Source: a virus | Taxonomy: Duplodnaviria; Caudoviricetes | Length of the DNA stretch: 33,261 nt | Direction: 5' to 3' (one strand) | Virus record (IMG/VR): IMGVR_UViG_3300037462_000170 | Coordinates: 1-33,261 of that record | In this document: one piece after another, positions 1 to 15,359 of the stretch | How the letters are laid out: every line of letters begins with the position of its first letter | How positions within the stretch are numbered: position 1 is the first letter of the stretch | Program-made: the position numbers and the translations under genes | Notes under the pieces: generated by a model | Told to the model about the DNA's origin: nothing | The model's database searches: none | What the model saw: the letters and a program-made list of their open reading frames with translations, nothing else

Positions 1-9
1 GATCAAGGC

Positions 10-402
10 ATGAGCCACACAATCACACTACGCAACAAGGCGCAGGCCGACTCGATCATCCGCAAGGCAGCGGAGTGGATCGGGCGCCGCGTCGCAGACG
101 GCCGCGCTGTTGTGCTGACGCTGGAAGACGAGCGGCGCAACTTGGATCAAAACGCGCTGCTGCACGCGCTGCTGACCGACATCAGCCACCGCCACGAATG
201 GGCCGGCCGGAAGAGGGACGCTGAATGCTGGAAGCGGCTCTTTGTCGCAGCGTGGTGTCGGGCTCGCGGGGAGGCGGTCGAGATGCTCCCGGCGCTTGAT
301 GGCCACGGCGTCGACATCGTATTTCGGCGCACCAGCAAGATGAGCAAGGCAGAGGTATCTGAGCTGATCGATTACATACAGGCTTGGGATGAAGAGGCAT
401 AA
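10..402 (+). CDS. ninB: NinB/Orf-family recombination protein
   Basis: Motifs RRNLDQNALLHALLTDIS, W.GRK...E.WKRLF and RTSKMSKAEVSELIDYIQAW match lambdoid NinB. Its TAA stop lies in the GCATAAC core site. Confidence 0.9.
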   Translation: MSHTITLRNKAQADSIIRKAAEWIGRRVADGRAVVLTLEDERRNLDQNALLHALLTDISHRHEWAGRKRDAECWKRLFVAAWCRARGEAVEMLPALDGHGVDIVFRRTSKMSKAEVSELIDYIQAWDEEA

Positions 403-484
403 CGTGGAGTTCAGCGGCGTGCCCGCTGGACATTCGAGCAACCACCCTGCTGGCGGCACGTCCGCTGCAACGCAGCGGTTAGGC
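397..484 (-). repeat. attC-like site 1
   Basis: + strand: GCATAAC-GTGGA-GTTCAGCGG-CGTGCC...GGCACG-T-CCGCTGCAAC-GCAGCG-GTTAGGC; two unpaired bases on the right arm. Confidence 0.88.
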
Positions 485-507
485 GTCACTGGCGCCGGAG
501 CGAAGCA

Positions 508-714
508 ATGTGCGAGTGCATGAAAGAGATGAACGTGGTGCTTGAGAAGCACAACTGCCGGCTGGCGATGGGCCTGCAAGTGACGCCCGACATGGGCATC
601 AAGGGTCGCTACCTGATGGCGACCGAGAAGATCGACAAGACGAAGCGCATGCCCGTGCCCAGCGTGATGTGCAGTCACTGCCCGTTCTGCGGCGAGAAGC
701 TGGCGGGCGAGTGA
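508..714 (+). CDS. Small Cys-rich phage protein (CxC...CPFCG), cassette 1
   Basis: GGAG upstream of ATG; fills the space between attC1 and attC2; likely Zn-binding. Confidence 0.8.
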   Translation: MCECMKEMNVVLEKHNCRLAMGLQVTPDMGIKGRYLMATEKIDKTKRMPVPSVMCSHCPFCGEKLAGE

Positions 715-723
715 ATTCGTGAC

Positions 724-825
724 GCCTAACGGACAGGTGAGCCGACAAGGAGGCGAGACGAAATGACCGAAGCGAACCAGAACCACGATGCCGACGAAGG
801 TCGGCGCTCGACCGAACAGTTAGGC
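724..825 (-). repeat. attC-like site 2
   Basis: GCCTAAC-GGACA-GGTGAGC...GCTCGACC-GAACA-GTTAGGC; contains AAGGAGG and ATG 763. Confidence 0.85.
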
Positions 826-1047
826 CCGCTGGTGAACCGCGCATTGTTCGCGGACGAGTGCCAGAGACTCGCTGAGTGGGCGCTTATTGGCCCTGTGCAG
901 CGGGCCGCGCTTGAGAGCTTCGCCGAGCGCCTGCTGGCCGCAGAGCGCGAGCGGTGGAAAAGCCGGTGCGCGGGGAAATCTCACTATGGGTGCCAGTACC
1001 TCGCCACATGCGGCAGCGTGTGTAACAAGTGCGGCACTGCCGTTTAG
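763..1047 (+). CDS. Hypothetical protein with C-terminal Cys cluster, cassette 2
   Basis: Starts inside attC2 after AAGGAGG; C-terminal C..C.....CGSVCNKCG. Confidence 0.72.
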   Translation: MTEANQNHDADEGRRSTEQLGPLVNRALFADECQRLAEWALIGPVQRAALESFAERLLAAERERWKSRCAGKSHYGCQYLATCGSVCNKCGTAV

Positions 1048-1048
1048 G

Positions 1049-1163
1049 GCCTAACGTAGAGGTAAGCGGACCGCAACGGCGAGAAGGACCATGACCACCA
1101 CAGACCCCGCGAACACCACGAGCGGCGCCGCTGTTGCGACTCCGGTTGACCAACCTGTTAGGC
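1049..1163 (-). repeat. attC-like site 3
   Basis: GCCTAAC-GTAGA-GGTAAGCGGA...TCCGGTTGACC-AACCT-GTTAGGC; contains AAGGA and ATG 1091. Confidence 0.85.
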
Positions 1164-1450
1164 CAGCAACCGAAGTGCGCTGGTACTGCGTGAACCGAGA
1201 CGGTCTAGCCACGCTATGCCTCAACGAACAAGATGCGCACGAGATGGCGGCGGAGTGCGACATCGACTTTCCGCGTGGCGGTCCGCATCGGGCTGTGCGC
1301 CTGGTGGATGCACAACAACCGCTGACACGCCAGCAGATTGACGCCGTGATGACCGAGCACTACCCGCTCGACAGCCTGCTGCGCGAGAACGTGGACGCAT
1401 TCGAGGTGTGCGTGCGCGACATAGAGCGGCTTCATGGAATTGGGGCCTAA
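1091..1450 (+). CDS. Hypothetical protein, cassette 3 (paralogue of 6406-6750)
   Basis: Starts inside attC3, ends on the TAA of GCCTAAC; clear paralogue in cassette 12. Confidence 0.82.
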   Translation: MTTTDPANTTSGAAVATPVDQPVRPATEVRWYCVNRDGLATLCLNEQDAHEMAAECDIDFPRGGPHRAVRLVDAQQPLTRQQIDAVMTEHYPLDSLLRENVDAFEVCVRDIERLHGIGA

Positions 1451-1543
1451 CGCAGAGTTCACCGGCCCGACACGGCCGTGACGCTGCAGGCAGAAGCAAC
1501 GGAGGACCCGCCGTGGCGGGTCCGGTGGAACGCCCAGTTCGGC
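1445..1543 (-). repeat. attC-like site 4
   Basis: GCCTAAC-GCAGA-GTTCACCGG...CCGGTGGAAC-GCCCA-GTTCGGC. Confidence 0.85.
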
Positions 1544-1572
1544 TGGGGTTAGATGCAACCGAAAGGACGGAT

Positions 1573-1854
1573 GTGGACCACAACGAATGCGACCTGACGC
1601 CGTGGTTTGACGGCCGCACAAAGCCGATCCGCGTAGGCGTCTACATGCTCAAGTGCGGTGGCGCCGGGCTCAGAGACGGATACCAGCACTGGGACGGCAA
1701 AACGTGGGGGCCTTGGCATCCGAGCGCAGAACATGCCGCGCAGAGGCGGCCCGATCAACGCGCCGATCTGAAGTATCAGAACGACAACTGGCGCGGGCTC
1801 CGCAAGAAGCCGAACGTGGGAATTGAGCCGCCGCGTAGCGGTCGGCTCGAATGA
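1573..1854 (+). CDS. Hypothetical phage protein (TPWF..KP.RVGVY...WRGL), cassette 4
   Basis: Frame of track ORF 1408-1854; likely GTG start at 1573 after AAAGGA. Reads through into attC5 (KKPNVGIEPPRSGRLE*). Confidence 0.72.
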   Translation: MDHNECDLTPWFDGRTKPIRVGVYMLKCGGAGLRDGYQHWDGKTWGPWHPSAEHAAQRRPDQRADLKYQNDNWRGLRKKPNVGIEPPRSGRLE

Positions 1855-1864
1855 CGGGTTAGGC
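1809..1864 (-). repeat. attC-like site 5 (short, 56 bp)
   Basis: GCCGAAC-GTGGGA-ATTGAGCCG-CCGC-GTA-GCGG-T-CGGCTCGAAT-GACGG-GTTAGGC; on the - strand it reads like a classical 59-base element. Confidence 0.9.
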
Positions 1865-1883
1865 CCGTTGTAACCGGAGCGAG

Positions 1884-2054
1884 ATGATGGCGAGCGAACA
1901 ACCAAAGCCCGTGCAATGCGCGTGGTGCCGCAAGGTGTTCACTGCGGGCGGCGACATGGCCTGCGGTGCAAAGGTGCCCACCCACATGGCCGCAGGGCCT
2001 GACGGCGCGTGGTGCAAGACCGACGACATTGTGAAGATGCTGGAGAAGACATGA
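1884..2054 (+). CDS. Small hypothetical protein (56 aa, CxxC), cassette 5
   Basis: Not in the ORF track; translated by hand (MMASEQPKPVQCAWCRKVF...MLEKT*). GGAG RBS; ATGA overlap with the next gene. Confidence 0.65.
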   Translation: MMASEQPKPVQCAWCRKVFTAGGDMACGAKVPTHMAAGPDGAWCKTDDIVKMLEKT

Positions 2055-2266
2055 GCCCAAAGATGCAAGTGGCTATGCGGATCGTGAGCGAGCACCTGGA
2101 CGCGATACAGCGCTCGGTGTTCAAGTCCGATGCCGGCATGAAGCTGACCTTCATTGCCCGCGACCCGGCAAACCCGGAGGCCGACTTTCTGCTGAGCGAA
2201 GACGACCTATCCGAAGTGGCCGAACTGCTGATTCGCAGCGCTGCCCGCGAAGATGTACGGGCCTAA
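2051..2266 (+). CDS. Hypothetical phage protein, cassette 5
   Basis: ATG 2051 overlaps the upstream TGA; ends on the TAA of GCCTAAC. Confidence 0.75.
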   Translation: MSPKMQVAMRIVSEHLDAIQRSVFKSDAGMKLTFIARDPANPEADFLLSEDDLSEVAELLIRSAAREDVRA

Positions 2267-2356
2267 CGTTCGAGCTAAGCGGGAGACGCCCCATGACCAA
2301 GCATGAAGACACCACCCAAGCTGCCGGCGGCTCTCCGCTTGAGTGAGGGGTTGGGC
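2261..2356 (-). repeat. attC-like site 6
   Basis: GCCTAAC-GTTCGA-GCTAAGCGG...CCGCTTGAGT-GAGGG-GTTGGGC. Confidence 0.85.
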
Positions 2357-2385
2357 GGCTGGTGAGCGAAGGCACAGGAGTAGGC

Positions 2386-2508
2386 ATGCTGACATTGACG
2401 CTATGCAAGTTCACGCACTGCCGGCTGCGGCCAGCGTGGGCAAGCAACGCGGCCGGCTGGCAGTTTCACTGGCTGTGGATTTACTTTGAATGGCGGAACG
2501 AGCAATGA
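2386..2508 (+). CDS. Small Trp-rich peptide (40 aa), cassette 6
   Basis: AGGAG RBS; MLTLTLCKF...WQFHWLWIYFEWRNEQ*; ATGA overlap with the next gene. Confidence 0.55.
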   Translation: MLTLTLCKFTHCRLRPAWASNAAGWQFHWLWIYFEWRNEQ

Positions 2509-2735
2509 AGAAGGCCAAGGATTTCAACGCCGACATGGTGGACCTGCAGCTACAGGTGAGCCAAGCCTACGCGGCCGAGGTTCACAAGCTGCGGCAGGAG
2601 AACAAGGAACTGCGCGCGACCATCGCGGCTTTCCCTTCGACCGCCACCGAACTGCAAGACCGCGTGACGATGCTGGAATGCCAACTGCTGGCCCGCAGCG
2701 AGCCGCCCAACGTTGCAATTGAGCCGCGCCGTTAG
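2505..2735 (+). CDS. Coiled-coil hypothetical protein, cassette 6
   Basis: ATG 2505 coupled to the upstream TGA; heptad-like pattern; stops inside attC7. Confidence 0.7.
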   Translation: MKKAKDFNADMVDLQLQVSQAYAAEVHKLRQENKELRATIAAFPSTATELQDRVTMLECQLLARSEPPNVAIEPRR

Positions 2736-2761
2736 GCGTCGGCTCGAATTGCGTGTTGGGC
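2705..2761 (-). repeat. attC-like site 7 (short, 57 bp)
   Basis: GCCCAAC-GTTGCA-ATTGAGCCG-CGCC-GTTA-GGCG-T-CGGCTCGAAT-TGCGT-GTTGGGC. Confidence 0.9.
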
Positions 2762-2807
2762 GTCTCGTGCCGAAGCGCTGAAACGTTGGCGTGTTACAAA
2801 AAAGGTC

Positions 2808-2835
2808 TTGCGTAGTCTGGTTGTTGTGCTACAGT
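2808..2835 (+). promoter_or_regulatory. Putative sigma70 promoter inside cassette 7
   Basis: TTGCGT-16 nt-TACAGT with TG extended -10 motif and an upstream A tract, in an AT-rich gap before ATG 2868. Confidence 0.6.
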
Positions 2836-2867
2836 AACCACATCGACAACGCAACCGGAGAGACGAA

Positions 2868-3074
2868 ATGGCAACGCAACAAGTGAACCTCTACAGCCCC
2901 TGGATCAGCAACCGCAAGAACTGGACGGAGGCCGTGCGCGTTGAGCGTGTGATGCAGGCCACCGGCTGCACCGCTGACGATGCCCGCGAGTACCTGATGG
3001 CTGAGGAAGGCGACGAACACGACGCGATCCTGAGCTACCGCACCGACCGCCAAGCCTACGGGGCGGTGCGATGA
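2868..3074 (+). CDS. Small protein with UBA-like three-helix motif, cassette 7
   Basis: VERVMQATGCTADDAREYLMAEEGDEHDAI resembles UBA-like domains (EF-Ts N-terminus, NAC); GGAG RBS. Confidence 0.7.
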   Translation: MATQQVNLYSPWISNRKNWTEAVRVERVMQATGCTADDAREYLMAEEGDEHDAILSYRTDRQAYGAVR

Positions 3075-3337
3075 GCGCGGCCCTGCGGCAAGACCTAGAC
3101 GAGGCCCGCAAGGGCCTTGCCGAGTGGCGCACGCTGGCGCTTTCGTTGCAGGCACAGATGAAGCACCAAGCCGATTGCCGCGAAAGCGAACTTGTGACGC
3201 TGCTGAAGGACATCCTGCATTGCAGCGACGTGTTTGCAACCTTCCGGCCGGACCTGCACGCGCGGCTGCTGGACTTCGGGCGCCGGCTGAAGGCGCAGGA
3301 GCCCCGCGACGACTTCCCAGACGACTACGAGGTATGA
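3071..3337 (+). CDS. Hypothetical protein, cassette 7
   Basis: ATGA overlaps at both ends. Confidence 0.7.
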   Translation: MSAALRQDLDEARKGLAEWRTLALSLQAQMKHQADCRESELVTLLKDILHCSDVFATFRPDLHARLLDFGRRLKAQEPRDDFPDDYEV

Positions 3338-3534
3338 GCGGCGAACAGAACAAGGGCGGGCGACCGCCCGCGCCGCCTCAGTTGCAGCGCGTGAATGTGC
3401 CGCTTCGCCTGCCGCGCTGGATGGCGGAATGGATCGCGGAGCAGTGCGCAGAAGGCCCGCCGTACAAGACGGCGACACAGTTGATCGAAGCGGCGATGGT
3501 GAAAGCCTACAAGCTGCGCCCGCCGAAGGAGTGA
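3334..3534 (+). CDS. Probable ribbon-helix-helix DNA-binding protein, cassette 7
   Basis: GGRPP...RVNVPLRLPRWMAEWI...ATQLIEAAM pattern; start set to ATG 3334 (GAGG RBS, ATGA overlap). Confidence 0.7.
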   Translation: MSGEQNKGGRPPAPPQLQRVNVPLRLPRWMAEWIAEQCAEGPPYKTATQLIEAAMVKAYKLRPPKE

Positions 3535-3536
3535 CG

Positions 3537-3791
3537 ATGAGCCAGAACTGCCCCAAAGGCGATGAGCCGTGCATTCGCGGCTGCAAAGGATGGGAATGCC
3601 GAGATGGGTGGCCTGAAGACCGCGTGACCTGCGGCGGCGGCTTGCCAGGAGACCCAAACGGCGAACACGCCGCGCTGGCCGTCGAGGTTCTCGTGCGCAA
3701 GTACGAGGGCGCGATGCTGCGCGAGACTTTGCGAGAGGCGTTGACCGAGGCGTACATGATGGGCGCGCAGAACATCCTGGGGAGACTGTGA
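3537..3791 (+). CDS. Cys-rich hypothetical protein, cassette 7
   Basis: AAGGAG RBS before ATG 3537, in the frame of track ORF 3429-3791. Confidence 0.65.
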   Translation: MSQNCPKGDEPCIRGCKGWECRDGWPEDRVTCGGGLPGDPNGEHAALAVEVLVRKYEGAMLRETLREALTEAYMMGAQNILGRL

Positions 3792-3967
3792 TGGACTACC
3801 ACCTACTGACGAAGAAGTGCGACGGCATGTGCGACTCGTGCGAGTGCCCGCCCGCAACGCTTCCCGACAGGCCACCGACGCCCGGTTGCCGCACCCCCGA
3901 AGGGTGCCGCGAAAACGGCTGCCTTGTCTGGTGCGATGAGCACAAGCCGGAGGCGGCAAATCCATGA
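3791..3967 (+). CDS. Small Cys-rich protein (58 aa), cassette 7
   Basis: Not in the ORF track; MDYHLLTKKCDGMCDSCECPP...; TGATG and ATGA overlaps with both neighbours. Confidence 0.6.
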   Translation: MDYHLLTKKCDGMCDSCECPPATLPDRPPTPGCRTPEGCRENGCLVWCDEHKPEAANP

Positions 3968-4191
3968 CCCTGCAAGACCGCATTGACGAACTCGTGGCAC
4001 AGCACGGAAGCCTTCGCGCCGTAGCTCGCGTGACAGAGATTGACGTGGGCTACCTGTCGCGGATGCGGGCCTACGCGAACGTAAACCCGGGCCGCGACAA
4101 GCTGCGCCGGCTGGGCCTGCGCCGTGTGGTGACCTATGAACTGCTCAAGACGCCCAACGCAGAGCTAAGCGGACCGGGCCGGCGCAGATGA
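3964..4191 (+). CDS. Cro/XRE-like HTH protein, cassette 7
   Basis: HGSLRAVARVTEIDVGYLSRMR...NPG...LRRLGL; reads into attC8. Confidence 0.75.
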   Translation: MTLQDRIDELVAQHGSLRAVARVTEIDVGYLSRMRAYANVNPGRDKLRRLGLRRVVTYELLKTPNAELSGPGRRR

Positions 4192-4253
4192 ACTGTCAAG
4201 GAATGCTTGAGCGTTGCCCGCCGGCCCGGGTCCGCTTGAGCGCACTGTTGGGC
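4152..4253 (-). repeat. attC-like site 8
   Basis: GCCCAAC-GCAGA-GCTAAGCGGA-CCGGGCCGGCG...CGCCGGCCCGG-GTCCGCTTGAGC-GCACT-GTTGGGC. Confidence 0.9.
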
Positions 4254-4279
4254 GGCTGCCGCCCGGAGCGAGGAAGACT

Positions 4280-4477
4280 ATGCACACAGCACCGATGTCA
4301 GACAGCCAAGGCGAGTTCGCCGAGTTCAAGACCCAGCCCGACGTGCCTTGCCGCAAGTGCGGCGTGCACGCGGTGAGCATGCGCGAGTGGGAAAGCTCGT
4401 GCGGCGGCTGGGAGGACTACCAGTACAAGTGCCACCACTGCGGCCATACGTGGTGGGTGGAAGGAATTGACGCATGA
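4280..4477 (+). CDS. Zinc-ribbon protein, cassette 8
   Basis: CRKCG...YKCHHCGHTW; ATG 4280 after GAGGA. Confidence 0.75.
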   Translation: MHTAPMSDSQGEFAEFKTQPDVPCRKCGVHAVSMREWESSCGGWEDYQYKCHHCGHTWWVEGIDA

Positions 4478-4692
4478 AGTACTGGTGGCTCGTTGAGAAC
4501 TTCACTGCCGAAGGGCATTCCACCGGGCTCTATATGGCGTGCCAAGTGAACATGACCCTGACCGCCGACGTGCACAAGGCTCGCAAGTTCCGCCGCCAAC
4601 GCACGGCCGAGTTCCGTGCGCTGGACATGCGTGACGCGAGGCGCGGCGACTGGCGCGCCGTGGAGCACGGCTTTGAGGACAGCAAGCCATGA
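4474..4692 (+). CDS. Hypothetical phage protein, cassette 8
   Basis: ATGA overlaps at both ends. Confidence 0.72.
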   Translation: MKYWWLVENFTAEGHSTGLYMACQVNMTLTADVHKARKFRRQRTAEFRALDMRDARRGDWRAVEHGFEDSKP

Positions 4693-4991
4693 GCAGAGAA
4701 GCTTTTGGCGACCCGCCAGAACAGCAGGAAGTGCCTGAGTATTGCCCGAACTGCGGCAGCGACTTCTACATGCCTGGCTGCACGCACTGCGAAGAGGTGA
4801 AGCGGCGCTGCGCCGCCGAGTCCGAAGCGCTGGCCCTGCGCGGGGTTCTGCACCGCATGTTGGAAGCGCCGACGACGCAAATCAGCGTTGGCTGGAAGGA
4901 TGCGATCAGGCGGGCGATGTTCGCAGCCGTGCCCGACAGCAAGACGCCCAACGTGCGAATTGAGCCGGTGACCCCGGCCACGGAGGAATGA
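4689..4991 (+). CDS. Hypothetical protein with two CxxC pairs, cassette 8
   Basis: CPNCG...CTHC; reads into attC9 (KTPNVRIEP...). Confidence 0.72.
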   Translation: MSREAFGDPPEQQEVPEYCPNCGSDFYMPGCTHCEEVKRRCAAESEALALRGVLHRMLEAPTTQISVGWKDAIRRAMFAAVPDSKTPNVRIEPVTPATEE

Positions 4992-5040
4992 TGACCACAG
5001 AAACCACGCCGGGGCACTCGGCTCGAATGAGGGGTTAGGC
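4946..5040 (-). repeat. attC-like site 9
   Basis: GCCCAAC-GTGCGA-ATTGAGCCG...CGGCTCGAAT-GAGGG-GTTAGGC. Confidence 0.88.
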
Positions 5041-5059
5041 CCGTCGTAACCGGAGCGAG

Positions 5060-5299
5060 ATGATGTTTGAGAGCTTCACAATCCAACACCCGTACCGAGC
5101 TGGGACGATGGAGGTTGTTCCTGCTGCCGACTACGCAACAGCAAAGCTGGCAGCCCTGGACTGCCGAACATGCCGACACCTGAGCGCCAAGCACCAAGAG
5201 TGCCTGTCTGTGCTGCGATGCGAAGGCGGCGACATGCACCAGCGGCAAGGCAAACTGATGCTGTGGCACACGGCAGACCTTCAGGGGCGCGGCTTCTAG
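5060..5299 (+). CDS. Cys-containing hypothetical protein, cassette 9
   Basis: GGAG RBS; CRTCRH motif; fills the cassette. Confidence 0.68.
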   Translation: MMFESFTIQHPYRAGTMEVVPAADYATAKLAALDCRTCRHLSAKHQECLSVLRCEGGDMHQRQGKLMLWHTADLQGRGF

Positions 5300-5300
5300 G

Positions 5301-5395
5301 GCCGAACGCAGAGGTCAGGCGGGCCAACGGCCCAGAGGCTTGACCACACCACACACCTGCGAGGCCGTTGGCCTTGCCTGCACCGAAAGTTAGGC
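5301..5395 (-). repeat. attC-like site 10
   Basis: GCCGAAC-GCAGA-GGTCAGGC-GGGCCAACGGCC...GGCCGTTGGCC-TT-GCCTGCACC-GAAA-GTTAGGC; only a 4-nt spacer, possibly impaired. Confidence 0.8.
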
Positions 5396-5421
5396 CTGGT
5401 GGCCAAAGAAGGGAGTAGACG

Positions 5422-5664
5422 ATGCGAAGCAGCAGCCGATTGAACTTGGCCGCGGCGATGGCGATGGCCTCGATTGCCGGCCTGAGCGCCGCGCAAGAGG
5501 CCGCCGGCCCCCCGTTGCGCAGCGCCGGAAGCGGCAACAACCGACGGCCGACTCCGCCGCGCATGGATACGGAGCAGGCGCGCGAGGTGGCGGCCTGGAA
5601 TGCCGAAGTGGACCGCCGAAAGGCTGAGAAGAAGGCCGCCAAGCTGGCGAGGCGCGCGGCCTAA
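5422..5664 (+). CDS. Hypothetical protein, cassette 10
   Basis: GGGAG RBS; Ala-rich N-terminus, basic C-terminus; ends on the TAA of GCCTAAC. Confidence 0.7.
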   Translation: MRSSSRLNLAAAMAMASIAGLSAAQEAAGPPLRSAGSGNNRRPTPPRMDTEQAREVAAWNAEVDRRKAEKKAAKLARRAA

Positions 5665-5757
5665 CGCAGCGGTAACCGGACAAGGAGGCTGCAGTGAGTG
5701 AGCAAAGCGAGAAGGTGCCGCCGGCCGACGCAGGTCCGGTTGACCAACCTGTTGGGC
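5659..5757 (-). repeat. attC-like site 11
   Basis: GCCTAAC-GCAGC-GGTAACCGGAC...GTCCGGTTGACC-AACCT-GTTGGGC; contains AAGGAGG and GTG 5694. Confidence 0.87.
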
Positions 5758-5930
5758 GGCCGGTGGACGAAGCCACGGACGCCGAAGGGCCGCGAGGCAC
5801 CTACGGGTGCGCTTGCGTGAGCCGCAGCGGCCATGCATGCGCCGAGCTGCGCTACGGCTACCGCGAGATACCGGAGCCGTGCGAGTGCCTGTGCCACGAC
5901 TGGAGAGACGGCGATGACGACCTGGGCTGA
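5694..5930 (+). CDS. Cys-rich hypothetical protein, cassette 11
   Basis: GTG start inside attC11 after AAGGAGG; CAC...C...CECLCH. Confidence 0.68.
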   Translation: MSEQSEKVPPADAGPVDQPVGRPVDEATDAEGPRGTYGCACVSRSGHACAELRYGYREIPEPCECLCHDWRDGDDDLG

Positions 5931-6102
5931 CGAGTACGTGACCCTGCTGGAAGACTGCGAGAAGCGCAGCGAGCGCCTGAGCGATTGGGAACTCGGTTTC
6001 GTGGACTCGCTGCAGCGGCAACTGGCCGAAGGGCGCAGGCCCAGCGCGAAGCAGATCGAGACGCTGGACACCATCTGGGAGCGCGCCACCAAGCGCGGCT
6101 GA
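5914..6102 (+). CDS. Small hypothetical phage protein, cassette 11
   Basis: LSDWELGFVDSL...PSAKQIETLDTIW pattern; ATG 5914 after GGAG. Confidence 0.75.
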   Translation: MTTWADEYVTLLEDCEKRSERLSDWELGFVDSLQRQLAEGRRPSAKQIETLDTIWERATKRG

Positions 6103-6106
6103 CGCC

Positions 6107-6367
6107 ATGCACGTTGAACTGCAGATGGACCTAGCGCTGCTGCAGCGCGCCATGAAGGCCGAAACCGAAGCCGCGCTGCTGCGGGCTGCGCTGGACGCCG
6201 AAACGGCACGCTGGGAGGAAGCCCTGCGCCTGACATGGCAGATGGTGGACCCGCTGAAACCGGCCGGGCAACCCGGCAGCTACTGGCGCGGCCAGGACGC
6301 CGGGATAGTGGCCGCGCTGACCACACTGCGGGCGAACCTGAAGACGCCCAACGCAAAGCTAACTTGA
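6107..6367 (+). CDS. Hypothetical protein, cassette 11
   Basis: Follows the upstream stop by 4 nt; reads into attC12 (KTPNAKLT*). Confidence 0.68.
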   Translation: MHVELQMDLALLQRAMKAETEAALLRAALDAETARWEEALRLTWQMVDPLKPAGQPGSYWRGQDAGIVAALTTLRANLKTPNAKLT

Positions 6368-6463
6368 CCGCCACGGCGCGAGCGCCACAACTTGAGGAAG
6401 ACGAGATGACCGATGCAGACAACAGGCCCGCCGTGGCGGGTCAAGTTGAGCGACCTGTTAGGC
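6346..6463 (-). repeat. attC-like site 12
   Basis: GCCCAAC-GCAAA-GCTAACTTGA-CCGCCACGGCG...CGCCGTGGCGG-GTCAAGTTGAGC-GACCT-GTTAGGC. Confidence 0.9.
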
Positions 6464-6750
6464 CTGCCGCCGAAGCGCGCTGGTACTGCCTGAGCCGCGA
6501 AGGCATGGCAACGCTGTGCGCCGACGAGGAAGACGCAAAAGAGGTGGCCGCCGAAAGCTGGGTTCTGTACCCGAACAACGGGCCATATCGTGTGGCGCAA
6601 ATGGTGGACCGACAACAGCCGCTGACGCGCCAGCAAATCGACGCGGTGATGACCGAGCACTACCCGCTGAGCAGCCTGCTGCGCGAGCAAGTGGACGCCT
6701 TCGAGGCATGCGTGCGCGACATTGAGCGGCTGCATGGCATTGGGGCCTAA
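6406..6750 (+). CDS. Hypothetical protein, cassette 12 (paralogue of 1091-1450)
   Basis: ATG 6406 after GAGGA inside attC12; aligns with the cassette 3 protein. Confidence 0.82.
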   Translation: MTDADNRPAVAGQVERPVRPAAEARWYCLSREGMATLCADEEDAKEVAAESWVLYPNNGPYRVAQMVDRQQPLTRQQIDAVMTEHYPLSSLLREQVDAFEACVRDIERLHGIGA

Positions 6751-6865
6751 CGCCCGAGCTAACCTGACCGACACAGCGCGATGACAGACCAAGTAACCCA
6801 GGACGCACCGACCGACGCCAGCCACAGGCCCGCTGTGGCGGTTCAGGTTGAGCGAAGTGTTAGGC
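6745..6865 (-). repeat. attC-like site 13
   Basis: GCCTAAC-GCCCGA-GCTAACCTGA...TCAGGTTGAGC-GAAGT-GTTAGGC; contains ATG 6781. Confidence 0.87.
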
Positions 6866-7419
6866 CCCATGCGACGGCTGCGGGCTACGGCTGCATATTG
6901 GCTGACCCGCCTTGGGCGCTGACGATGGCCGGGCAGCGCAAGCGTGCGAAGGAAGGCAAGAAGCCCGAGGCGCTGCCGTACCCGACGATGACCATTGCGC
7001 AGATATGCGACATGCCCGTTGGCCAGCTTGCCACCGAAGACGCGCACCTGTGGCTGTGGACAACAAACCAGCACCTTGAGGACGGATTCAAGGTGATGCG
7101 AGCGTGGGGCTTCAAGTACCTGGCGCCTGTGCATTGGGTGAAGCCGACAGGCATGGGCAACTGGTTTGTACACCGCACGCAGACGATGCTTTTTGGCTAC
7201 CGCGAGAAGTGCAGGTTTCCGCTGGCGCGCTACCGGCCGAACGTGTTTCACAGCGGCGACCCGAAGCGGCACAGCGAGAAGCCGGAAGCGGCCTATGAAC
7301 TGGTGGAAGCGGTGAGCCCTGGGCCGCGCTTGGAGTTGTTCGCGCGACGGAAGCGCGATGGCTGGCACACCTGGGGAAATGAGGTGCCATGCGATGTATT
7401 CATGGGGCCTAACAGGTAG
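6781..7419 (+). CDS. MT-A70-family adenine methyltransferase, cassette 13
   Basis: ILADPPW catalytic motif, YPTM, HLWLWTTN, WGF.Y, HSEKP, RLELFAR, GW..WGNE. Confidence 0.92.
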   Translation: MTDQVTQDAPTDASHRPAVAVQVERSVRPHATAAGYGCILADPPWALTMAGQRKRAKEGKKPEALPYPTMTIAQICDMPVGQLATEDAHLWLWTTNQHLEDGFKVMRAWGFKYLAPVHWVKPTGMGNWFVHRTQTMLFGYREKCRFPLARYRPNVFHSGDPKRHSEKPEAAYELVEAVSPGPRLELFARRKRDGWHTWGNEVPCDVFMGPNR

Positions 7420-7425
7420 ATATGC
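7407..7425 (-). other. attI-like recombination site at the right end of the array
   Basis: GCCTAAC is not followed by an attC hairpin but by AGGTA-GATATGC. GATATGC is a 6/7 inverted match to GCATAAC at 397-403. Confidence 0.65.
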
Positions 7426-7769
7426 GCACTTTGCAACCTCTGCACAGCCGCTGGGCTCGCTACAACGCCGACCCCGCGAACCACGCGCGCCGCCGCGCAG
7501 CGAGAGACGCAGCCCGCATCGCCGGCCCTGCGCCAGCCTACCCACCAGACGCGCCGCTGCACGGAGACTGGCTCGGCGGTCGCATCAACGGCCACACCGT
7601 CATCGTGCGCCTGATGCGTGACCCAAGGCACCGCAGCGACCAATGGGCGGCCGAGGTCGACGGCGAGGTGATCGCGGACGCTGCGGGGCTGACGGAGCTG
7701 TGGAGACTGCTGCACCAGCGCTGGCCGCGGGCGCTGTCCCGGCGAGAGATTGCGGGGATGACGACATGA
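7422..7769 (+). CDS. Hypothetical protein
   Basis: ATG within the attI-like site; ATGA overlap with the next ORF. Confidence 0.62.
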   Translation: MRTLQPLHSRWARYNADPANHARRRAARDAARIAGPAPAYPPDAPLHGDWLGGRINGHTVIVRLMRDPRHRSDQWAAEVDGEVIADAAGLTELWRLLHQRWPRALSRREIAGMTT

Positions 7770-7975
7770 CAGACAACACCGGATGGCGATGGGTCCGCCT
7801 GCGCCAAACGTCAGACGGCCGGCGCGTCGCCAAGGAATGGGCCGCCGAAGCCGCCGAGCCGCCCAGCTTCTTGACGCCGACGGCGACAGTTGCGCGCGAG
7901 GTCATGCGCGGATTCAGGCCCGAGCATACGCATCGGGCGTGGTCGCATGTGTTCGGCTACCGCTACAGGGAGTGA
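7766..7975 (+). CDS. Hypothetical protein
   Basis: ATG 7766 in the frame of track ORF 7643-7975, coupled to the upstream stop. Confidence 0.55.
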   Translation: MTDNTGWRWVRLRQTSDGRRVAKEWAAEAAEPPSFLTPTATVAREVMRGFRPEHTHRAWSHVFGYRYRE

Positions 7976-7976
7976 G

Positions 7977-8159
7977 ATGATCATCCGCATCGAATCCGCA
8001 TCGACCCGCCGCTGGCAGGCCCGCGCGTACACCGTGGCGCCTCGGTACGTGTCCAAGCTGTTCAGCGATGCCAAGTGCGGCGGCATCGATGCTGCATACG
8101 CACTCGCTGCGGCAGAGGCGCCGAAGCTCAAGCGCAAGGCAAGGAGGCGGCGGGCGTGA
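7977..8159 (+). CDS. Small stand-alone AP2-like DNA-binding protein
   Basis: GGGAG RBS; WQARAY...SKLFSDAKCGG..AAYALA resembles phage AP2 domains. Confidence 0.55.
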   Translation: MIIRIESASTRRWQARAYTVAPRYVSKLFSDAKCGGIDAAYALAAAEAPKLKRKARRRRA

Positions 8160-8375
8160 CGATCTGGCGCGTCCTGTGGTTTCCGTAGTAGCAGCGTATC
8201 ATGGCGGCTCTCACACCGTCGTTGCCACACGTCGACCAGCCAACCCGCTCAGGCGTCATGAGGATTAGCCCCCCGGCTGATCGAAACCGCGGGACCGGGG
8301 ACTCTCACGCATGCGCCTCCAATCGGGAGAGCTGCCGGTGACCAACGCGGGAAGCCGCGAACGGGGCGCAGTCGT

Positions 8376-8456
8376 GAGGGCGAATGCGCAGGCTGATGCG
8401 CAGCGGAGTAGCTCCCGTCCGCTACGGCAAGCCGGAGATCAGCGCCGGCCGCTCTC
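8376..8456 (+). ncRNA. Candidate structured RNA (four-way junction with complementary loops)
   Basis: Closing stem GAGGGCG/CGCTCTC; arms TGCGCA-GGCTGA-TGCGCA, AGCGGA...TCCGCT and GCCGG-AGATCAGCG-CCGGC; loops GCTGA and TCAGC are complementary. Confidence 0.5.
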
Positions 8457-8777
8457 TTCCAACTCACCGAACCCTGACGCCAGCGACTCCCGCGCCCTCT
8501 TGGCCGCGCTGTCGATCTGCTGCGAGTCGATCAGCGCCTGGCCGGTGATGTAGGTTCGCAGCAGGGTCTCAAGCTCATCCTGCCGCGTCCTGGCCTCGTC
8601 GAGCTGCCTGACCAGCCGATCCCGCTCCCGGCGCTCGTGCCTGCGGTCGCGGTCGACGTAGCCGCGAAGCTCATCCAGCCGCGCCCATGCAACCATGAGC
8701 CGGACGCGGATGTTCCGGCGCTGCGCCCGCTTGCGGCGGGCTTGGTCCCATGCGCGAAGGCGGCCGAGGATGTTCAT
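8439..8777 (-). CDS. Basic coiled-coil hypothetical protein
   Basis: 112-aa Arg-rich helical ORF at the end of the - strand late operon. Confidence 0.55.
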   Translation of the reverse strand: MNILGRLRAWDQARRKRAQRRNIRVRLMVAWARLDELRGYVDRDRRHERRERDRLVRQLDEARTRQDELETLLRTYITGQALIDSQQIDSAAKRARESLASGFGELEESGRR

Positions 8778-8887
8778 GGGATTGGTTGTGTGCTACTATT
8801 TCCAGGTCTGGCTTCTCGGTTGGACACGGCGGGTGCTTCGGCGCTCGCTTGAAGGCCCCGTGGTGCGAGCCCGGGGCCTTCGCCTTT

Positions 8888-10021
8888 CTAGCGCGCCGTC
8901 AACTCCGTTTTCCGAGCGCTGCTGAAGCTGGTGCCGATCCAGTAGCCAGCCACCATGCCGACGACCGCAAGAACCGCGGTCACGATCTGAACCCGAAGCT
9001 CGCCGGTGTAGTTGCCGGGATGGACGAACAGCACATCCACCAGCAGCATCATCGGCATCAGGATCAGGACGAGGCTGATCAGGAATGCCGGGTTCCGCCA
9101 CAGCGGGATGCCTGACTCCATGGTGGCAGTGTTCGCCTTCCTGGCGCCCTCAACACCACCGCCGCCGGCCTCGGTCAGTTCGTACCAGATCGACTCGACG
9201 GCCTTCTCTGCCGCAGCCCTTGCCACGGGGTCGGCCCTGATCTTCTCGGCCGCGTCCTGGGCATTGACGGCACCCGTGGCGGCAGTCACGGCCTCGACGA
9301 CCACCTCTGCGGCCTTGATGTTTCGCTCTGCCACTTGAGAGCCGGACCCGAACACCCGGCCCAGCTTCGGGATGCTCTCGATCAGGCTCGGCAAGACGGC
9401 TGCGATGATGGGCGCGATTGCGGGCATGCTTTGCTCCTTCGGCCACTCAGGGCCTTCGATCCACAGAGGCACTTCGGCCGGGGCTGGCTGGTTGGCAAGC
9501 ACCGCCTTTGCTCGCTCCCAACGTGCGCGGCGGTCTGCGGCTCCGTTCGTCCCGCCATTGATGCGGCGCGTGATGCGGTCGAAGTCGCCAGCGTCGGCCA
9601 ATGCGTTTAGGTTGCGCGACCCCCACCACGCCGCGGCCGACCACGCGGCCCACTGCGGTTCTTCCAAGGCTTCGGGGCTGGCCTCAAAGTCTGGCGCTCC
9701 CTGGTGGGCAAGTAGCTGCCCCATCTGCCGATAGTTGTCCCGGCCGGTGACTTGGATCAGGCCCCGACCGCGATAGCGCGTGCCGTCGCCTTGGTTGACG
9801 TTGCCGAGGTCTTTCCGACCTTCGTAGGCCGATCCGTCGGCAATCTCGCGCAGCCACTTGAATGACCCGGACTCGTGGCCGATTTGGGCCAAGAAGGCGG
9901 CCAACCGATCTGTGGTATTGATCTCGTAGAAGCGGCAGGCTTCCGACAGCCAGCCAGCGAACAACTCCGCGCGCTCCGGCGTGCAGCCGGTGGCGTCTTG
10001 GAGTAGTTGCGGGGTGATCAT
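8888..10021 (-). CDS. GH19-family endolysin fused to a C-terminal membrane (holin-like) domain
   Basis: RLAAFLAQIGHESG, YEGRKDLGN, GDG.RYRGRGLIQVTGR.NY, ITRRINGG.NG..DR. Start reset to ATG 10021, overlapping the upstream stop. Two hydrophobic segments at the C-terminus. Confidence 0.88.
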   Translation of the reverse strand: MITPQLLQDATGCTPERAELFAGWLSEACRFYEINTTDRLAAFLAQIGHESGSFKWLREIADGSAYEGRKDLGNVNQGDGTRYRGRGLIQVTGRDNYRQMGQLLAHQGAPDFEASPEALEEPQWAAWSAAAWWGSRNLNALADAGDFDRITRRINGGTNGAADRRARWERAKAVLANQPAPAEVPLWIEGPEWPKEQSMPAIAPIIAAVLPSLIESIPKLGRVFGSGSQVAERNIKAAEVVVEAVTAATGAVNAQDAAEKIRADPVARAAAEKAVESIWYELTEAGGGGVEGARKANTATMESGIPLWRNPAFLISLVLILMPMMLLVDVLFVHPGNYTGELRVQIVTAVLAVVGMVAGYWIGTSFSSARKTELTAR

Positions 10022-11079: not shown

Positions 11080-13220
11080 ACGACCATCTGCTCCACGGGG
11101 ATGGCGAAGATCGCGTTGCCGTCGATCTCGATCAGGATGTGGCCGACCCGCGTGCCGGGCGTGCCGCTCAAGGTCCAGGCCGGGAAGGCGCCGGTGTAGA
11201 ACCTCAGGAGGGCAGTCACGCCGCCGCCGTCCTCGAAGTCCATCGCATAGGCCGCCGTCGCCGTGTTGCTCTGCCGGATCAGCGCGCCGTCGACGTTCGC
11301 GCGGAAGTCGATGCCGTTGGTCAGCTTCGCCAGCGCCTTGTCGTCGCCCTGCGGCGCGATCTCGTGCGCAGCGCGGGCCACGAAGGCGGCGCCGCCGCTG
11401 TTTGCCTTGCCCAGCACCAGCTGCGTGCCCACGCGGCTGGCCGCCCCGGTCGACCCGTTGCCGAACAGGTCCAGCTCGAGCGCGCACAGGATGCCGGCGC
11501 CGCTGTCGCCGCTGAAGTCCTGGGCCTCCAGCACGCCCGCGAACGAGTTGCCATCGGTGGCGTACTTGTACGCCTGGCCGTACAGCGTGACGTTCTCCGC
11601 CTCGTCGCCGGCATAGTTGCTGTTGCGCGCGATCATGGACCACTCGAATGCAGTCGTCGTCGCGCTCGACTTGTGGTCGATGATGAACGGGCTGCGCACC
11701 GTGCCCAGGCCGCCGGCCGGCGACGTGCGCGCGATGCGGGTCGTGTCGTAGGTCGGCACGAGGATGGCCGGATCGCCGGTGGCGCCAGCGTCGAAGGTGT
11801 GCGAGCCGGTCCAGTCGTAATCGGCCGCCTCGTCGACCGTGCCGGGGCTGCCGCCCAGCTCGTTGGTGATCGACGGCACCTCGGCCGCGTCTTCGTACAG
11901 CGCGCCGGTCCAGCCGACTTCGACCGAGCCGCCGCCGCTGGTGCCGGTCTGCACGTACTTGCGCGCGCTGTCGGCGGTGTAGCTGTTGAAGCTCTTGTGA
12001 CCGCAGCCGATGAGCGTGATCTTGTTCGCCGCCGTCGAGGCCAGCGAGTCGCCGTAGACGTTGTGCTTCGTGTGCGTGGTGCTGTCGATGCGGTTGAAGC
12101 TGCAGCCGGTGAGTGAGTGCGCGGCGCCCGATGTGCCGGACGCGCTGATGAAGACGTCAGCGAAGCCGGCGTTTGCCTCGAAGTAGGTGCCGCTCATCAC
12201 CAGGCCGGTGGAGCCCTCGCCGCCCGCGTCGACGACCTTCAGCGCCCAGTTGTTCGCGTTGTAGGTGGCCAGCGCGTCGCCGCCGTTGCTCTCGAAGGTG
12301 CCGCCCACGAAGGACAGGCACGCCGGCTGCTCGAACAGCGCGCCGTAGGTGGTGTTCCCGGCCACCACGCACGAGGTGAAGGTCAGCGCGTTGGGGTTCG
12401 CGTAGTTGGCATTGAAGCCGCGAATCCCCTTGTTGCCGAACATGAAGTAGCTGTTCAGGAACAGCCCGACCACGCAGTCGGAGATGGCCGCCACCTCGTC
12501 GCCGCCGTCGAAGTAGCAGTTCTCGACGCTGAAGTACGCCAGGTTATCGAGCGCCAGCACCTTGCCCGTCTTGTCGGCCTTCTCGAAGGTCAGGCCGCGC
12601 AGGAACTGCTGCGACACGAAGCCGGTCAGCGTCGAGCCCAGCAGCGTCAGCATGGTGTAGTTGCCGGCGCCGCCCAGGATGCGGGAGCTGGCCATGCCGT
12701 CACCCAGTAGCGAGGCCTTGCGCGCGAAATAGTCGTCGGCCAGCGGGCCGGTGCTGGCTACGCTGTTGTCGATGGTCAGGCCCGAACTGATCAGGTAGTC
12801 CCCGCGCGGGAAGTACACGATGCCGCCGCGCGGGTTCGCCGCGTTGATCGCCGCCTGGATGGCCGCGGTGTCGTCGGTCACGCCGTCGCCGACAGCGCCG
12901 TAGTCGGTGACGTTGAACCACAGGCCATCCCGGGCCACGCCGCGCGGCTGGTAGAACAGCAGCTGCCCGGCCGAGTCGCGCACGTTCAGGCTGAACGGCT
13001 CCAGCGCGAACAGCTCGGCCGGCGTGCCGTTGCGCACCGCGTAGCCTGCCTTCGTGCGGATGGGCTGGTCGGCCGGCTGCGTGCCGGCGCGGTCCCAGTA
13101 CATCGTGATCGGAGCCGTCTCGGGGTTCTGCCCGGCCTGACCGAAGTAGAGATAGCCGCCGTGCAGCGGGCGGCCGGCCTTGTCAGCATAGAGCGGGTAG
13201 GGGGAGAGGGTGGTCAGCAT
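11076..13220 (-). CDS. Tailspike / polysaccharide depolymerase (beta-helix)
   Basis: N-terminal P22-like particle-binding motif (YADKAGRPLHGGYLYFGQAGQNP); FNVTDYGAVGDGVTDDTAAIQAAI pectate-lyase-3-type start; beta-helix-like repeats. Confidence 0.88.
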   Translation of the reverse strand: MLTTLSPYPLYADKAGRPLHGGYLYFGQAGQNPETAPITMYWDRAGTQPADQPIRTKAGYAVRNGTPAELFALEPFSLNVRDSAGQLLFYQPRGVARDGLWFNVTDYGAVGDGVTDDTAAIQAAINAANPRGGIVYFPRGDYLISSGLTIDNSVASTGPLADDYFARKASLLGDGMASSRILGGAGNYTMLTLLGSTLTGFVSQQFLRGLTFEKADKTGKVLALDNLAYFSVENCYFDGGDEVAAISDCVVGLFLNSYFMFGNKGIRGFNANYANPNALTFTSCVVAGNTTYGALFEQPACLSFVGGTFESNGGDALATYNANNWALKVVDAGGEGSTGLVMSGTYFEANAGFADVFISASGTSGAAHSLTGCSFNRIDSTTHTKHNVYGDSLASTAANKITLIGCGHKSFNSYTADSARKYVQTGTSGGGSVEVGWTGALYEDAAEVPSITNELGGSPGTVDEAADYDWTGSHTFDAGATGDPAILVPTYDTTRIARTSPAGGLGTVRSPFIIDHKSSATTTAFEWSMIARNSNYAGDEAENVTLYGQAYKYATDGNSFAGVLEAQDFSGDSGAGILCALELDLFGNGSTGAASRVGTQLVLGKANSGGAAFVARAAHEIAPQGDDKALAKLTNGIDFRANVDGALIRQSNTATAAYAMDFEDGGGVTALLRFYTGAFPAWTLSGTPGTRVGHILIEIDGNAIFAIPVEQMVV

Positions 13221-13229
13221 CGCGTCGCC

Positions 13230-15359
13230 TCAGTGGATGGTCTCGCCGGGTGCGGGGTCGGTCACTGCCGGCTTGCGGCGGCCTGGCGCTCGCTTGCGCT
13301 CGGCGCTGTTCAGCGCGTCCTCGATCCGCTTGCGAAGCGCGCGGTCCTTCACGTACTGCCGCACAAAGCGCGTCATCGTCACCACCGGCACCGGGGCGCC
13401 GGACATGCCGATCAGCCCGGCGTCGCCAAAGGCGGCCAGGAGCGCCGACACGGTGTTGCTGGTGTTCACCGCGGCCTCTGGCGGCACGGTGCGCACGTAC
13501 TGCGCCAGGTCGCGCAGATCGCGCATGCGCTGGGCGCCTTCGCGGCCGAACACGAAATCGATCTTGCCGTCAGCGTCGAGCGAGCGGATCGCCTTGTCCA
13601 GTGCGGCCGGCGAGATCACGCGGTTGCCCGCGCTGTCGGTGGCCACGTTCTTGGTCGCCTCATCGCGCAGCCACTGCACCGTCGAGCCCTGCAGCTCGCG
13701 CCAGGCCTGCGCGCCGTCGTCGCCGGCTCGCTGTAGCACGCGGCGCACGTTGCGCACGTCGTCGAGCGAGCCCTTCAGGATCGTGTGCGAGAACACGTCC
13801 TCCAGGGCCACCTGCCGGTCTGACATGCCGCGCTTGTTGTTGAGCAGCTTGGCGATGACGGCCCGGTCTTCGTAGTTCTGCGCGAAGCGGGCGCGCATCT
13901 TCCGCGCCTGGCGGTACAGGTCGCCGCCAAGGCCGGCCGTCGACTCGTCGGTCAGGCCCTTGATGATGGTGGCCTGCCGCACGTTCGTCGGCTCGAAGTC
14001 CGTCGCTCGGTTGATGGCCTGGCGGAACCGCTCGGCCGCCTTCAGGGTGGCCGGCTGCGGCGTCAGGATGCCGTCAGGCCCTTCGGTGGCGATGCCCAAC
14101 TTCAGCGACAGCCTGCGGGCCACGTCCAGCAGCGGCGCGGTGGCCGACTCCGGCGCGGCGTCGTTCAGGTGCTGCACCACGCTGTCAAGCGTCACCGGCG
14201 ATTCGAGCTCGCCCGCCTTCTCCGCCGCGGTGTAGGCCGCGCGCACGCGCGCTTTGTCGGCCTGCGACTGCTTCACCAGGGCCTCGTCGACGGCGGCGCC
14301 GGTGGCGCGCAGCGTCGGCGCGCGGGCGCCGGTCTCGTCGATCCAGTGGTCGAAGTTCTGCAGGATGCGGTCGTTCTGCGCCAGCAGCCGGGCGCGCAGC
14401 GGCACGCCAGCGTCGGGGATCTTCGCCGCCTCGGTCTCGAACTTGAGCTGTGCAGCGTCGCGCGTGGCCTGGCCGCGCGTCAGCGCCGCGTCATCGGTGA
14501 AGCCCAGCATCTCGGCCGTGGTGCGGCGCTGCGTGGCCATGTCGGTGCCGGCGGCGCCCACGCTGCCCATCGTGCCGGGCGTCGGCCGCTGCGCCTGCGG
14601 CTCGCGCTGCAGGGCCTCCAGTGCTCGGCGCGGCAGCGTGGTCGACTCGCGGGCGAGCTGGCCGACCCGCTGCGCACCCTTGATGCCGGCCGCCACGGTG
14701 GCGTCGGCCGCGCCGGCTGCAGCTTCAGCGGCGCGCGGCGCGACGGCGCCGACGACATCTCGAGCTGTACCGGCGGCTGCGGCGCGGGCGGTCACGGCTG
14801 CGGGCGCGGCGCCACCAGCGCGGGCTGCCTGCATCGCGCCGGCGGCAGGCGCCATGTTGCCGGTCAGCGGCGCCAGCGGGATGAGGTTCTGCAGCGCCTG
14901 CCCGGCCGCCTCGGCCTGCGCCTGCCCCTGCTCCGTGCGCGGCTGATACGTCAGCGCCTGCGCGCCCTCGGCGGCCGACTGCTCGACGAGGTTTGCAGCC
15001 TCGGCCGTGCCGAACTTGCCGGCGAGGATCTGTTCGGCCAGCCCCTTGAGCGTGCCGCCGATCATGCCCAGCGCGCCGCCGGTGGCGCCGGTGGCAAGGC
15101 TCAGGCCGGCTTCTGCCGTGCCGACGGCCCGCTGCGCCAGCGTGGGGCCGGGCTGGGCCTGCGCCACCGCCACCCGGGCGGCCTCGCCTTCCTGGCCGGG
15201 GATGACGGCCGCGCGCCCGCCGTCGATGTTCACCAGCTTCTTGCCGGCGAACTCGCGGTCGGCACGCTCCTGCACCTCGCGCGGCGTGGCGTCGTCCGGA
15301 ACGCCTTCATAGACGTGCTGCGAGCCATCGGAGAAGGTCAGCGTGACGCGGCGGGCCAT
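13230..15359 (-). CDS. Large DNA ejection/transfer protein (position of P22 gp16)
   Basis: Ala-rich helical 709-aa protein, third of three ejection-type genes before the tailspike; start reset to MARRVTLTF. Confidence 0.7.
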   Translation of the reverse strand: MARRVTLTFSDGSQHVYEGVPDDATPREVQERADREFAGKKLVNIDGGRAAVIPGQEGEAARVAVAQAQPGPTLAQRAVGTAEAGLSLATGATGGALGMIGGTLKGLAEQILAGKFGTAEAANLVEQSAAEGAQALTYQPRTEQGQAQAEAAGQALQNLIPLAPLTGNMAPAAGAMQAARAGGAAPAAVTARAAAAGTARDVVGAVAPRAAEAAAGAADATVAAGIKGAQRVGQLARESTTLPRRALEALQREPQAQRPTPGTMGSVGAAGTDMATQRRTTAEMLGFTDDAALTRGQATRDAAQLKFETEAAKIPDAGVPLRARLLAQNDRILQNFDHWIDETGARAPTLRATGAAVDEALVKQSQADKARVRAAYTAAEKAGELESPVTLDSVVQHLNDAAPESATAPLLDVARRLSLKLGIATEGPDGILTPQPATLKAAERFRQAINRATDFEPTNVRQATIIKGLTDESTAGLGGDLYRQARKMRARFAQNYEDRAVIAKLLNNKRGMSDRQVALEDVFSHTILKGSLDDVRNVRRVLQRAGDDGAQAWRELQGSTVQWLRDEATKNVATDSAGNRVISPAALDKAIRSLDADGKIDFVFGREGAQRMRDLRDLAQYVRTVPPEAAVNTSNTVSALLAAFGDAGLIGMSGAPVPVVTMTRFVRQYVKDRALRKRIEDALNSAERKRAPGRRKPAVTDPAPGETIH

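Follow-up and report, generated by a model that had tools for sequence, protein, structure and literature searches.

Positions 7407 to 7425 of the phage genome analyzed here carry a conserved two-box site that is fused to the start of an open reading frame (ORF 7422). From sequence comparisons, we judge with a probability of roughly 0.7 that this is the phage's own attI site, where the phage would use a host integron integrase for the insertion of gene cassettes between positions 7412 and 7413. The site, hereafter called the dock, is real, conserved, and attI-like, it appears to work in the manner of an integron insertion site, and it is not part of a complete integron.

The phage genome carries an array of inverted cassettes

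The window, by which we mean the whole 33,261-base linear virus record, is rated 91% complete and could be missing a part. Its minus strand carries podovirus-like genes for head, portal, terminase, and lysis functions, and small plus-strand genes lie at the left. By using a geometry detector that requires an extra base on the 3′ arm, as in the attC bottom strand, we found 13 attC-like hairpins between positions 397 and 6865, all of them with bottom-strand geometry on the plus strand. The same detector returned no hairpin on the minus strand, in the rest of the window, or in 20 shuffled sequences, and a top-strand or minus-strand geometry was rejected for the window. The hairpins occupy positions 397–484, 724–825, 1049–1163, 1445–1543, 1809–1864, 2261–2356, 2705–2761, 4152–4253, 4946–5040, 5301–5395, 5659–5757, 6346–6463, and 6745–6865, and the 13-cassette array as a whole spans 403–7412 on the plus strand. 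The extra base is G in 10 of these hairpins, C in 2, and A in 1; over all arrays, it is G in 92 of 109 hairpins. In 12 of the window's 13 cassettes, the boxes on either side of the gene match as partners. The hairpins have the defining features of attC sites, namely R and L boxes on an imperfect hairpin whose extrahelical base fixes the bottom strand, and the array is a CALIN, that is, an attC cluster without an integron integrase, in a linear record that may lack a part. Note that a relaxed version of the detector also accepts GGCTAAC and AAT boxes, and that one hairpin of locus L036 was added by hand to the unit counts. Left boxes that end in AAT rather than AAC, a change just past the crossover base, occur at positions 1331–1337 of L045 and 2591–2597 of L034.

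Because the extra base identifies the plus strand as the attC bottom strand, a cut at AA|C is expected in each left box, and the array on the minus strand reads as an ordinary integron array that starts at 7407–7425. The cassette genes lie on the plus strand and thus run backwards, facing the dock. Several of them start inside a hairpin loop, including those at 763, 1091, 5694, 6406, and 6781. The last of these is an MT-A70 methyltransferase gene (6781–7419; PF05063, E = 5e-26), which together with the attC hairpin at 6745–6865 makes up the first-position cassette (6751–7412, plus strand).

Other features of the window were recorded along the way. Two cassettes of the array (1049–1450 and 6346–6750) form a paralogous pair with ~75% identity across 350 nt. 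The cassette at 2761–4151, which is 1.4 kb long and contains several small coupled genes, recurs in large part in other samples, and a similar block seems present at the far end of L063. Between the converging operons, positions 8160–8470 comprise ~300 nt with several short inverted repeats and no clear gene. A search of Rfam gave nothing at gathering score in the window and nothing credible at 8100–8550, and no match to the array or to ORF 7422 was found among 50,697 records of cultured phages.

A two-box site of fixed register adjoins the array

In the window, the dock consists of an R box (7407–7413), a 5-bp spacer (7414–7418), and an L box (7419–7425), with the minus strand as its top strand. 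Positions 7413–7425 read C, AGGTA, GATATGC and contain the start codon ATG 7422. Three scans with the ORF 7422 protein or its alignment yielded 46 loci, 41 of which include both the gene's 5′ end and a complete left box. A box ending in AAC, followed by five bases and then (G/A)(A/T)TATG, recurs in exact register at 38 of these 41 protein-selected loci. The other three have the start moved two codons up, and the AAC and its distance to the gene are kept in all 41. Beside the dock, these loci present 35 distinct 30-base left flanks. The initial annotation had proposed a dedicated attI-like landing site at the right end of the array and had called for a check of its conservation next to different first cassettes; both the proposal and the predicted conservation are supported for the right end, with a predicted crossover at 7412/7413.

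We then considered 39 sites with distinct flanks, a set made up of the protein-selected loci, the window, and three loci found by DNA pattern. The top base has a mean frequency of 0.42 at positions left of the box. This value rises to 0.93 within the box and reaches 1.0 at the C; the spacer stands at 0.72 and the L box again at 0.93. AAC is invariant in 39 of 39 sites. Left out were seven of the 11 new pattern hits (L054, L056, L057, L060, L061, L065, and L067), which are A/T-rich and have no tblastn match to the gene, as well as L066 (short flank; flank counts only), L039 (a duplicate of L001), the truncated loci L033, L046, and L005, and L048. The latter is the sole locus, among 42 with the 5′ region of the gene, that has the gene and lacks the dock, and it owes this to a deletion by which a cassette gene became fused with the middle part of the ORF. 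In none of 42 loci does a hairpin start at the dock. The 5-bp spacing of its two boxes, the AAC in the R box, and the lack of a hairpin are all features of attI sites.

Some of this conservation has other sources. Because a start codon lies within the L box, the conservation of this box is partly at the protein level, and the shared ancestry of the relatives weakens the independence of the counts. The possibility that the right half is a mere ribosome-binding site was rejected, since the eight spacer variants have no purine run in common and the distance from AAC to ATG is fixed. The L-box side presumably resembles a XerC-binding arm, a likeness that would hold only for the minority of variants similar to that of the window.

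The spacer can supply a stop codon to the adjacent cassette gene. In the window, positions 7414–7419 (plus strand) give the MT-A70 gene its stop codon, TAG at 7417–7419. Counting behind the AAC, a stop falls in codon 1 or 2 at 38 of 39 distinct sites versus 21 of 109 ordinary hairpins. By a proxy measure, the longest open frame reaching the box is the one closed by the box TAA in 18 arrays and the AAC frame in 8, and in no array is it the third, unstopped frame.

An integron integrase can also insert cassettes at attG-type secondary sites defined by a GWT core only, and IntI uses very many such sites and has hotspots, according to the portions of Loot et al. (10.1101/2022.09.11.507474) considered here. 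That the dock is an incidental insertion point of this kind is nevertheless hardly credible, because attG sites have a core alone and no conserved position, whereas the dock holds one fixed position in the 38 of 41 loci and has a second box at 5 bp. It may have begun as such a site.

The adjacent cassette supplies the left box

The actual box at 7407–7413 is GCCTAAC, not the GCATAAC of the join discussed below, and it matches the right box at five of seven positions. In all 26 arrays compared, the right box of the closest hairpin upstream has the dock box as its reverse complement; this holds for eight of eight rarer box variants as well. Permutation gave a mean of 12.9 such matches, and 26 was reached in 0 of 20,000 tries. 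Over all units, partner boxes match across the gene in 100 of 110 cases versus 30 of 110 within the hairpin, which is the signature of cassette units that are cut at the box. As in bacterial attI sites, then, the R box is completed by the first cassette. The segment GCCTAA (7407–7412, plus strand) would be derived from the MT-A70 cassette, and conservation begins at the inferred 7412/7413 crossover. Since the left box varies with the adjacent cassette, the 19-mer that the initial annotation expected to be conserved in relatives is not conserved as a whole; only its part from 7413 is. The fixed part comprises the C, spacer, and L box (13 bp from 7413) and probably some 20 further bases.

Sequencing runs gave a similar picture. 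In run X9, from a near-identical strain, positions 7407–8200 are present with one difference, and 122 letters upstream are unlike those of the window. In a contig of run X1, position 7408 is connected to a relative of the gene that ends near 3525. Furthermore, five contigs with SPAdes names start with exactly 55 bases that run up to and include the C. SPAdes employs k = 55, and such starts are expected if one cassette end has several successors in one sample, which we regard as a hint only.

These data also bear on the idea that the dock is a passive orphan left arm of an attC site whose neighbors have been swapped by homologous or short-homology recombination between phages. The L box does resemble the inner box of hairpin left arms and has the same 5-nt spacing, half-hairpins do arise by decay, and recombination genes were seen by eye upstream of several arrays. 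However, 35 flanks meet the dock at the same base with no partner-box mismatch, an in-frame stop is kept in all spacer variants, and the dock persists beside homologs as distant as those of L063 and L066, both of which were found by DNA pattern. We therefore consider a passive arm very unlikely.

ninB and the predicted empty site

The array is preceded by ninB (10–402, plus strand; PF05772, E = 1e-37), which is the left neighbor of the array in this lineage only. The window starts 9 nt before the gene, and a contig of run X11 reaches 2174 nt upstream of window position 1. The leftmost box, GCATAAC (397–403, plus strand), overlaps the ninB stop codon (400–402) and could be either an old dock half or a cassette end. 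Joining position 402 to 7413 was said in the initial annotation to rebuild an attI-like site from two inverted boxes. The letters of this join are correct, with GCATAA (397–402) containing the ninB stop and C-AGGTA-GATATGC containing ATG 7422, as is the 6/7 inverted match, which is of a quality found at 0.0012 per position on the plus strand of the window. However, because the box actually present at 7407–7413 differs from GCATAAC, the 6/7 symmetry exists only in the imagined join.

If this 19-mer were the original landing pad, an ancestral empty site would have joined the ninB stop directly to ORF 7422. The join is the expected product of excision between the leftmost attC and the dock, two relatives carry a perfect GTTATGC L box, and three runs keep ninB and the two leftmost cassettes to position 1057, one of them with the ORF 7422 side as well. 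In addition, ninB is normally a backbone gene, and a terminal box with a hairpin behind it was seen in none of 80 ninB loci. The latter result led us to reject ninB as a general cassette gene, with the proviso that these relatives are only 46–75% identical.

Other observations weigh against the ancestral pad. Among 18 distinct loci with 1000 nt or more of upstream sequence, none has an empty site, and ninB lies beside no dock in any other dock-bearing locus within the available DNA. Two pattern scans for the ninB-to-dock junction, a search that the initial annotation had proposed, gave 0 hits and 1 hit, the single hit being a cassette end on the same contig as L055. No 402-to-7413 joint occurs among the joints listed, and run contigs have no loose end behind 402–403. 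The sequence GCATAAC serves six more times as an internal left box in relatives, in all six cases after a GTTATGC partner, and is thus an ordinary cassette box. The far ends of related arrays are unrelated to one another and often decayed. Finally, the ninB segment has a depth of 2.6 in run X1 versus 15–25 for positions 1472–8200. The ninB stop as half of an ancestral site is consequently unlikely in our estimation, and the 402/7413 join is a fair prediction of the full-excision product, not a demonstrated ancestral state. In another phage (L077, 12474–14726), ninB lies 2.1 kb upstream of an inverted array with five attC sites, and the contig ends before any dock.

Direction of array growth

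That new cassettes enter at the right, as previously proposed, has moderate support. Six of 10 long relatives have a lone partner box upstream of the leftmost intact hairpin, where hairpins are half-lost, collapsed, or weak. Intact partner boxes were counted in 26 of 26 units at first position and in 74 of 84 at other positions (Fisher p = 0.059); comparison of the first two ranks with the rest gave p = 0.044, a split that was chosen afterwards. In three runs of one study, ninB and the two leftmost cassettes are kept and divergence follows position 1057, two bases past a crossover; in run X9, ninB is contiguous with the cassettes up to 1057. We thus place the oldest cassettes at the left and the newest at the right with moderate support. 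The MT-A70 cassette, which had been named the newest, indeed stands in first position, and its recency depends on this moderately supported polarity.

Against a strict polarity, variants within run X1 share the well-covered 1472–8200 segment and differ upstream of the hairpin at 1445. Exchange therefore also takes place in the interior of the array, and the window may be a composite of two strains. Mapping of crossovers via shared cassettes was uninformative, as only three pairs are shared among 112 units.

ORF 7422 and the source of the integrase

ORF 7422 (7422–7769, plus strand) is a conserved 115-amino acid gene with no assigned family, whose start codon lies in the L box and whose place is that of intI in bacterial integrons. 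It has 114 homologs, and we found no PHROG or Pfam family, no BFVD fold match at E ≤ 0.001, and no relative in bacterial genomes. Its AlphaFold model is weak (pTM 0.30), and an assignment to DUF4761 (ESM Atlas, 0.78) was set aside as below the level of evidence. The gene is linked to the dock in 41 of the 42 loci with its 5′ region, the exception being the deletion noted above. Codons 3–6 form an A/T-rich near-palindrome (7428–7439) that may be an accessory binding site. Rare codons are kept here, with CAA in 20 of 20 cases at codon 5 versus 30 of 116 later in the gene and a final T in codon 6 in 26 of 26 even though the residue varies, both counts being from relatives that are not independent. 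The GC content at third positions is 0.48 in codons 2–8 versus ~0.8 later, compared with 0.77 versus 0.92 in the structural genes of the window.

The surroundings of the gene vary among relatives. The dock and array follow recombination genes in L006, L036, L038, L040, and L041 and resolvase or antiterminator-like genes in L001, L044, and L063, as judged by eye, and these differing upstream genes imply that the dock/array module itself moves between operons. L022 (about 11800–14162), like L020 and L042, has a second array of at least six attC sites downstream of the ORF 7422 homolog, which ends next to lysis-like genes with no obvious dock.

No tyrosine recombinase (PF00589) matched in the window, and such enzymes are present in three of the 10 relatives searched. 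IntI (TIGR02249) was below the cut-off in all five long relatives scored, with a best value of 14.6 of 265 bits, and the relative G003, whose record is rated complete, has no tyrosine recombinase. Complete integrons have intI next to attI and genes that lead away from attI behind a Pc promoter; here, ORF 7422 occupies the intI slot and the genes face the dock.

These results allow us to weigh the idea that an activity of the phage itself, either ORF 7422 or a phage tyrosine recombinase, catalyzes or steers insertion, with host IntI not needed or insufficient. The position of ORF 7422, its tight linkage to the dock, and the three recombinase-bearing relatives speak for it. Yet the ORF 7422 product is small and matches no recombinase family or fold, the three recombinases score far below the IntI cut-off, G003 has none, and L055 and L062 keep the dock, the first codons, and their arrays although they have lost the remainder of the ORF 7422 family gene. 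We regard an activity of this kind as quite unlikely.

Related integrons in bacterial genomes

A pattern derived from the short hairpins of the window identified 20 stretches with the same attC family in bacterial genomes, mostly of beta- and gammaproteobacteria. IntI was over the cut-off in seven of 10 of these attC-bearing genomes versus none of 14 controls. By a crude measure, the arrays of L150, L157, L160, and L163 have the long frame in the classical direction, and those of L154, L164, and L165 look phage-like. Inspection by eye of five bacterial integrons revealed a candidate box, 5-base spacer, and box on the intI strand, 127–144 nt before the frame; one of the five has the attI1 L box as given in the text of PMC4792948 considered here.

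A betaproteobacterial genome bin (L158, reverse strand 1789–2829) contains a backward, phage-type cassette ~1 kb from a chromosomal intI, and its hairpin and leader are nearly identical to window positions 1809–1890. No clear attI was found between this cassette and intI. The resemblance suggests traffic between the phage and bacterial cassette pools. That a host IntI acts in trans at the dock is what we infer as the best explanation, not a result.

Proposed mechanism and implications

According to the preferred reading, in which the dock is an attI site served by a host enzyme, the integron integrase of the host would be borrowed by the phage to insert cassettes between 7412 and 7413. By analogy with integron chemistry, IntI would bind the double-stranded dock, bring it together with an incoming attC in its folded bottom-strand form, and cut at AA|C; replication would then resolve the junction, and older cassettes would be pushed leftwards. 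The bottom-strand location of the genes aligns them with the phage operon, so that transcription would start at a phage promoter upstream and reach the newest cassette last. Incoming genes would receive stop codons from the box and spacer, and ninB would be just the present far neighbor of the array.

A more speculative and rather unlikely extension is that the phage carries a minimal parasitic integron, consisting of the dock and the small gene in the intI slot, whose product or near-palindrome would recruit or steer the host integrase, and that the phage pool of backward cassettes also enters host chromosomal integrons.

If the dock is active, phages would keep an insertion site of their own under selection, rather than only integron debris, and a host integrase would build ordered arrays of accessory genes, providing a site-specific route to phage mosaicism. 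An active dock would also open a two-way channel between phages and bacterial integrons. Its 13-bp fixed half and natural variants would make a testable attC × attI substrate and a natural test of the minimal attI sequence.

Comparison with known systems

Phage attC clusters are already published. Qi et al. 2023 (PMC9892861), in the text considered here, report 17 phage CALINs, two of which are described as having typical structure, and show that IntI1 recombines five of six phage attC sites; an attI is named in two cases only, a class 1 integron and an intI-carrying Shewanella prophage. Common to those CALINs and the present array are an attC cluster in a phage without an integrase and methyltransferase cassettes. 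A conserved phage-encoded dock and systematically inverted genes, both present here, are not described in the same text, and we found no report of a conserved integrase-less phage dock or of inverted phage cassettes in the open-access literature.

The attG sites, as far as presented in the portions of Loot et al. (10.1101/2022.09.11.507474) considered here, are scattered, with a 3-base consensus and a G|WT crossover. The dock would share with them a double-stranded target outside an integron, the G|WT crossover, and an integrase in trans, as we propose, but it differs in having one conserved position, a second box, and arrays of up to 13 cassettes.

The closest likeness is to the attI sites of class 1 and sedentary chromosomal integrons. 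Like them, to the extent that PMC4792948 covers the AAC cut and the attI1 L box, the dock is not a hairpin and has two 7-bp boxes 5 bp apart, with the AAC crossover in the R box. In both, the R box is completed by the first cassette, and the L-side gene runs away from the array. Unlike them, the dock has no intI, no sigma-70-like promoter was found in window positions 1–9000, and the cassette genes face the site. The bacterial attI candidates lie 127–144 nt before the intI frame, whereas the dock overlaps a gene start, its L box holding the start codon of a small, unrelated gene.
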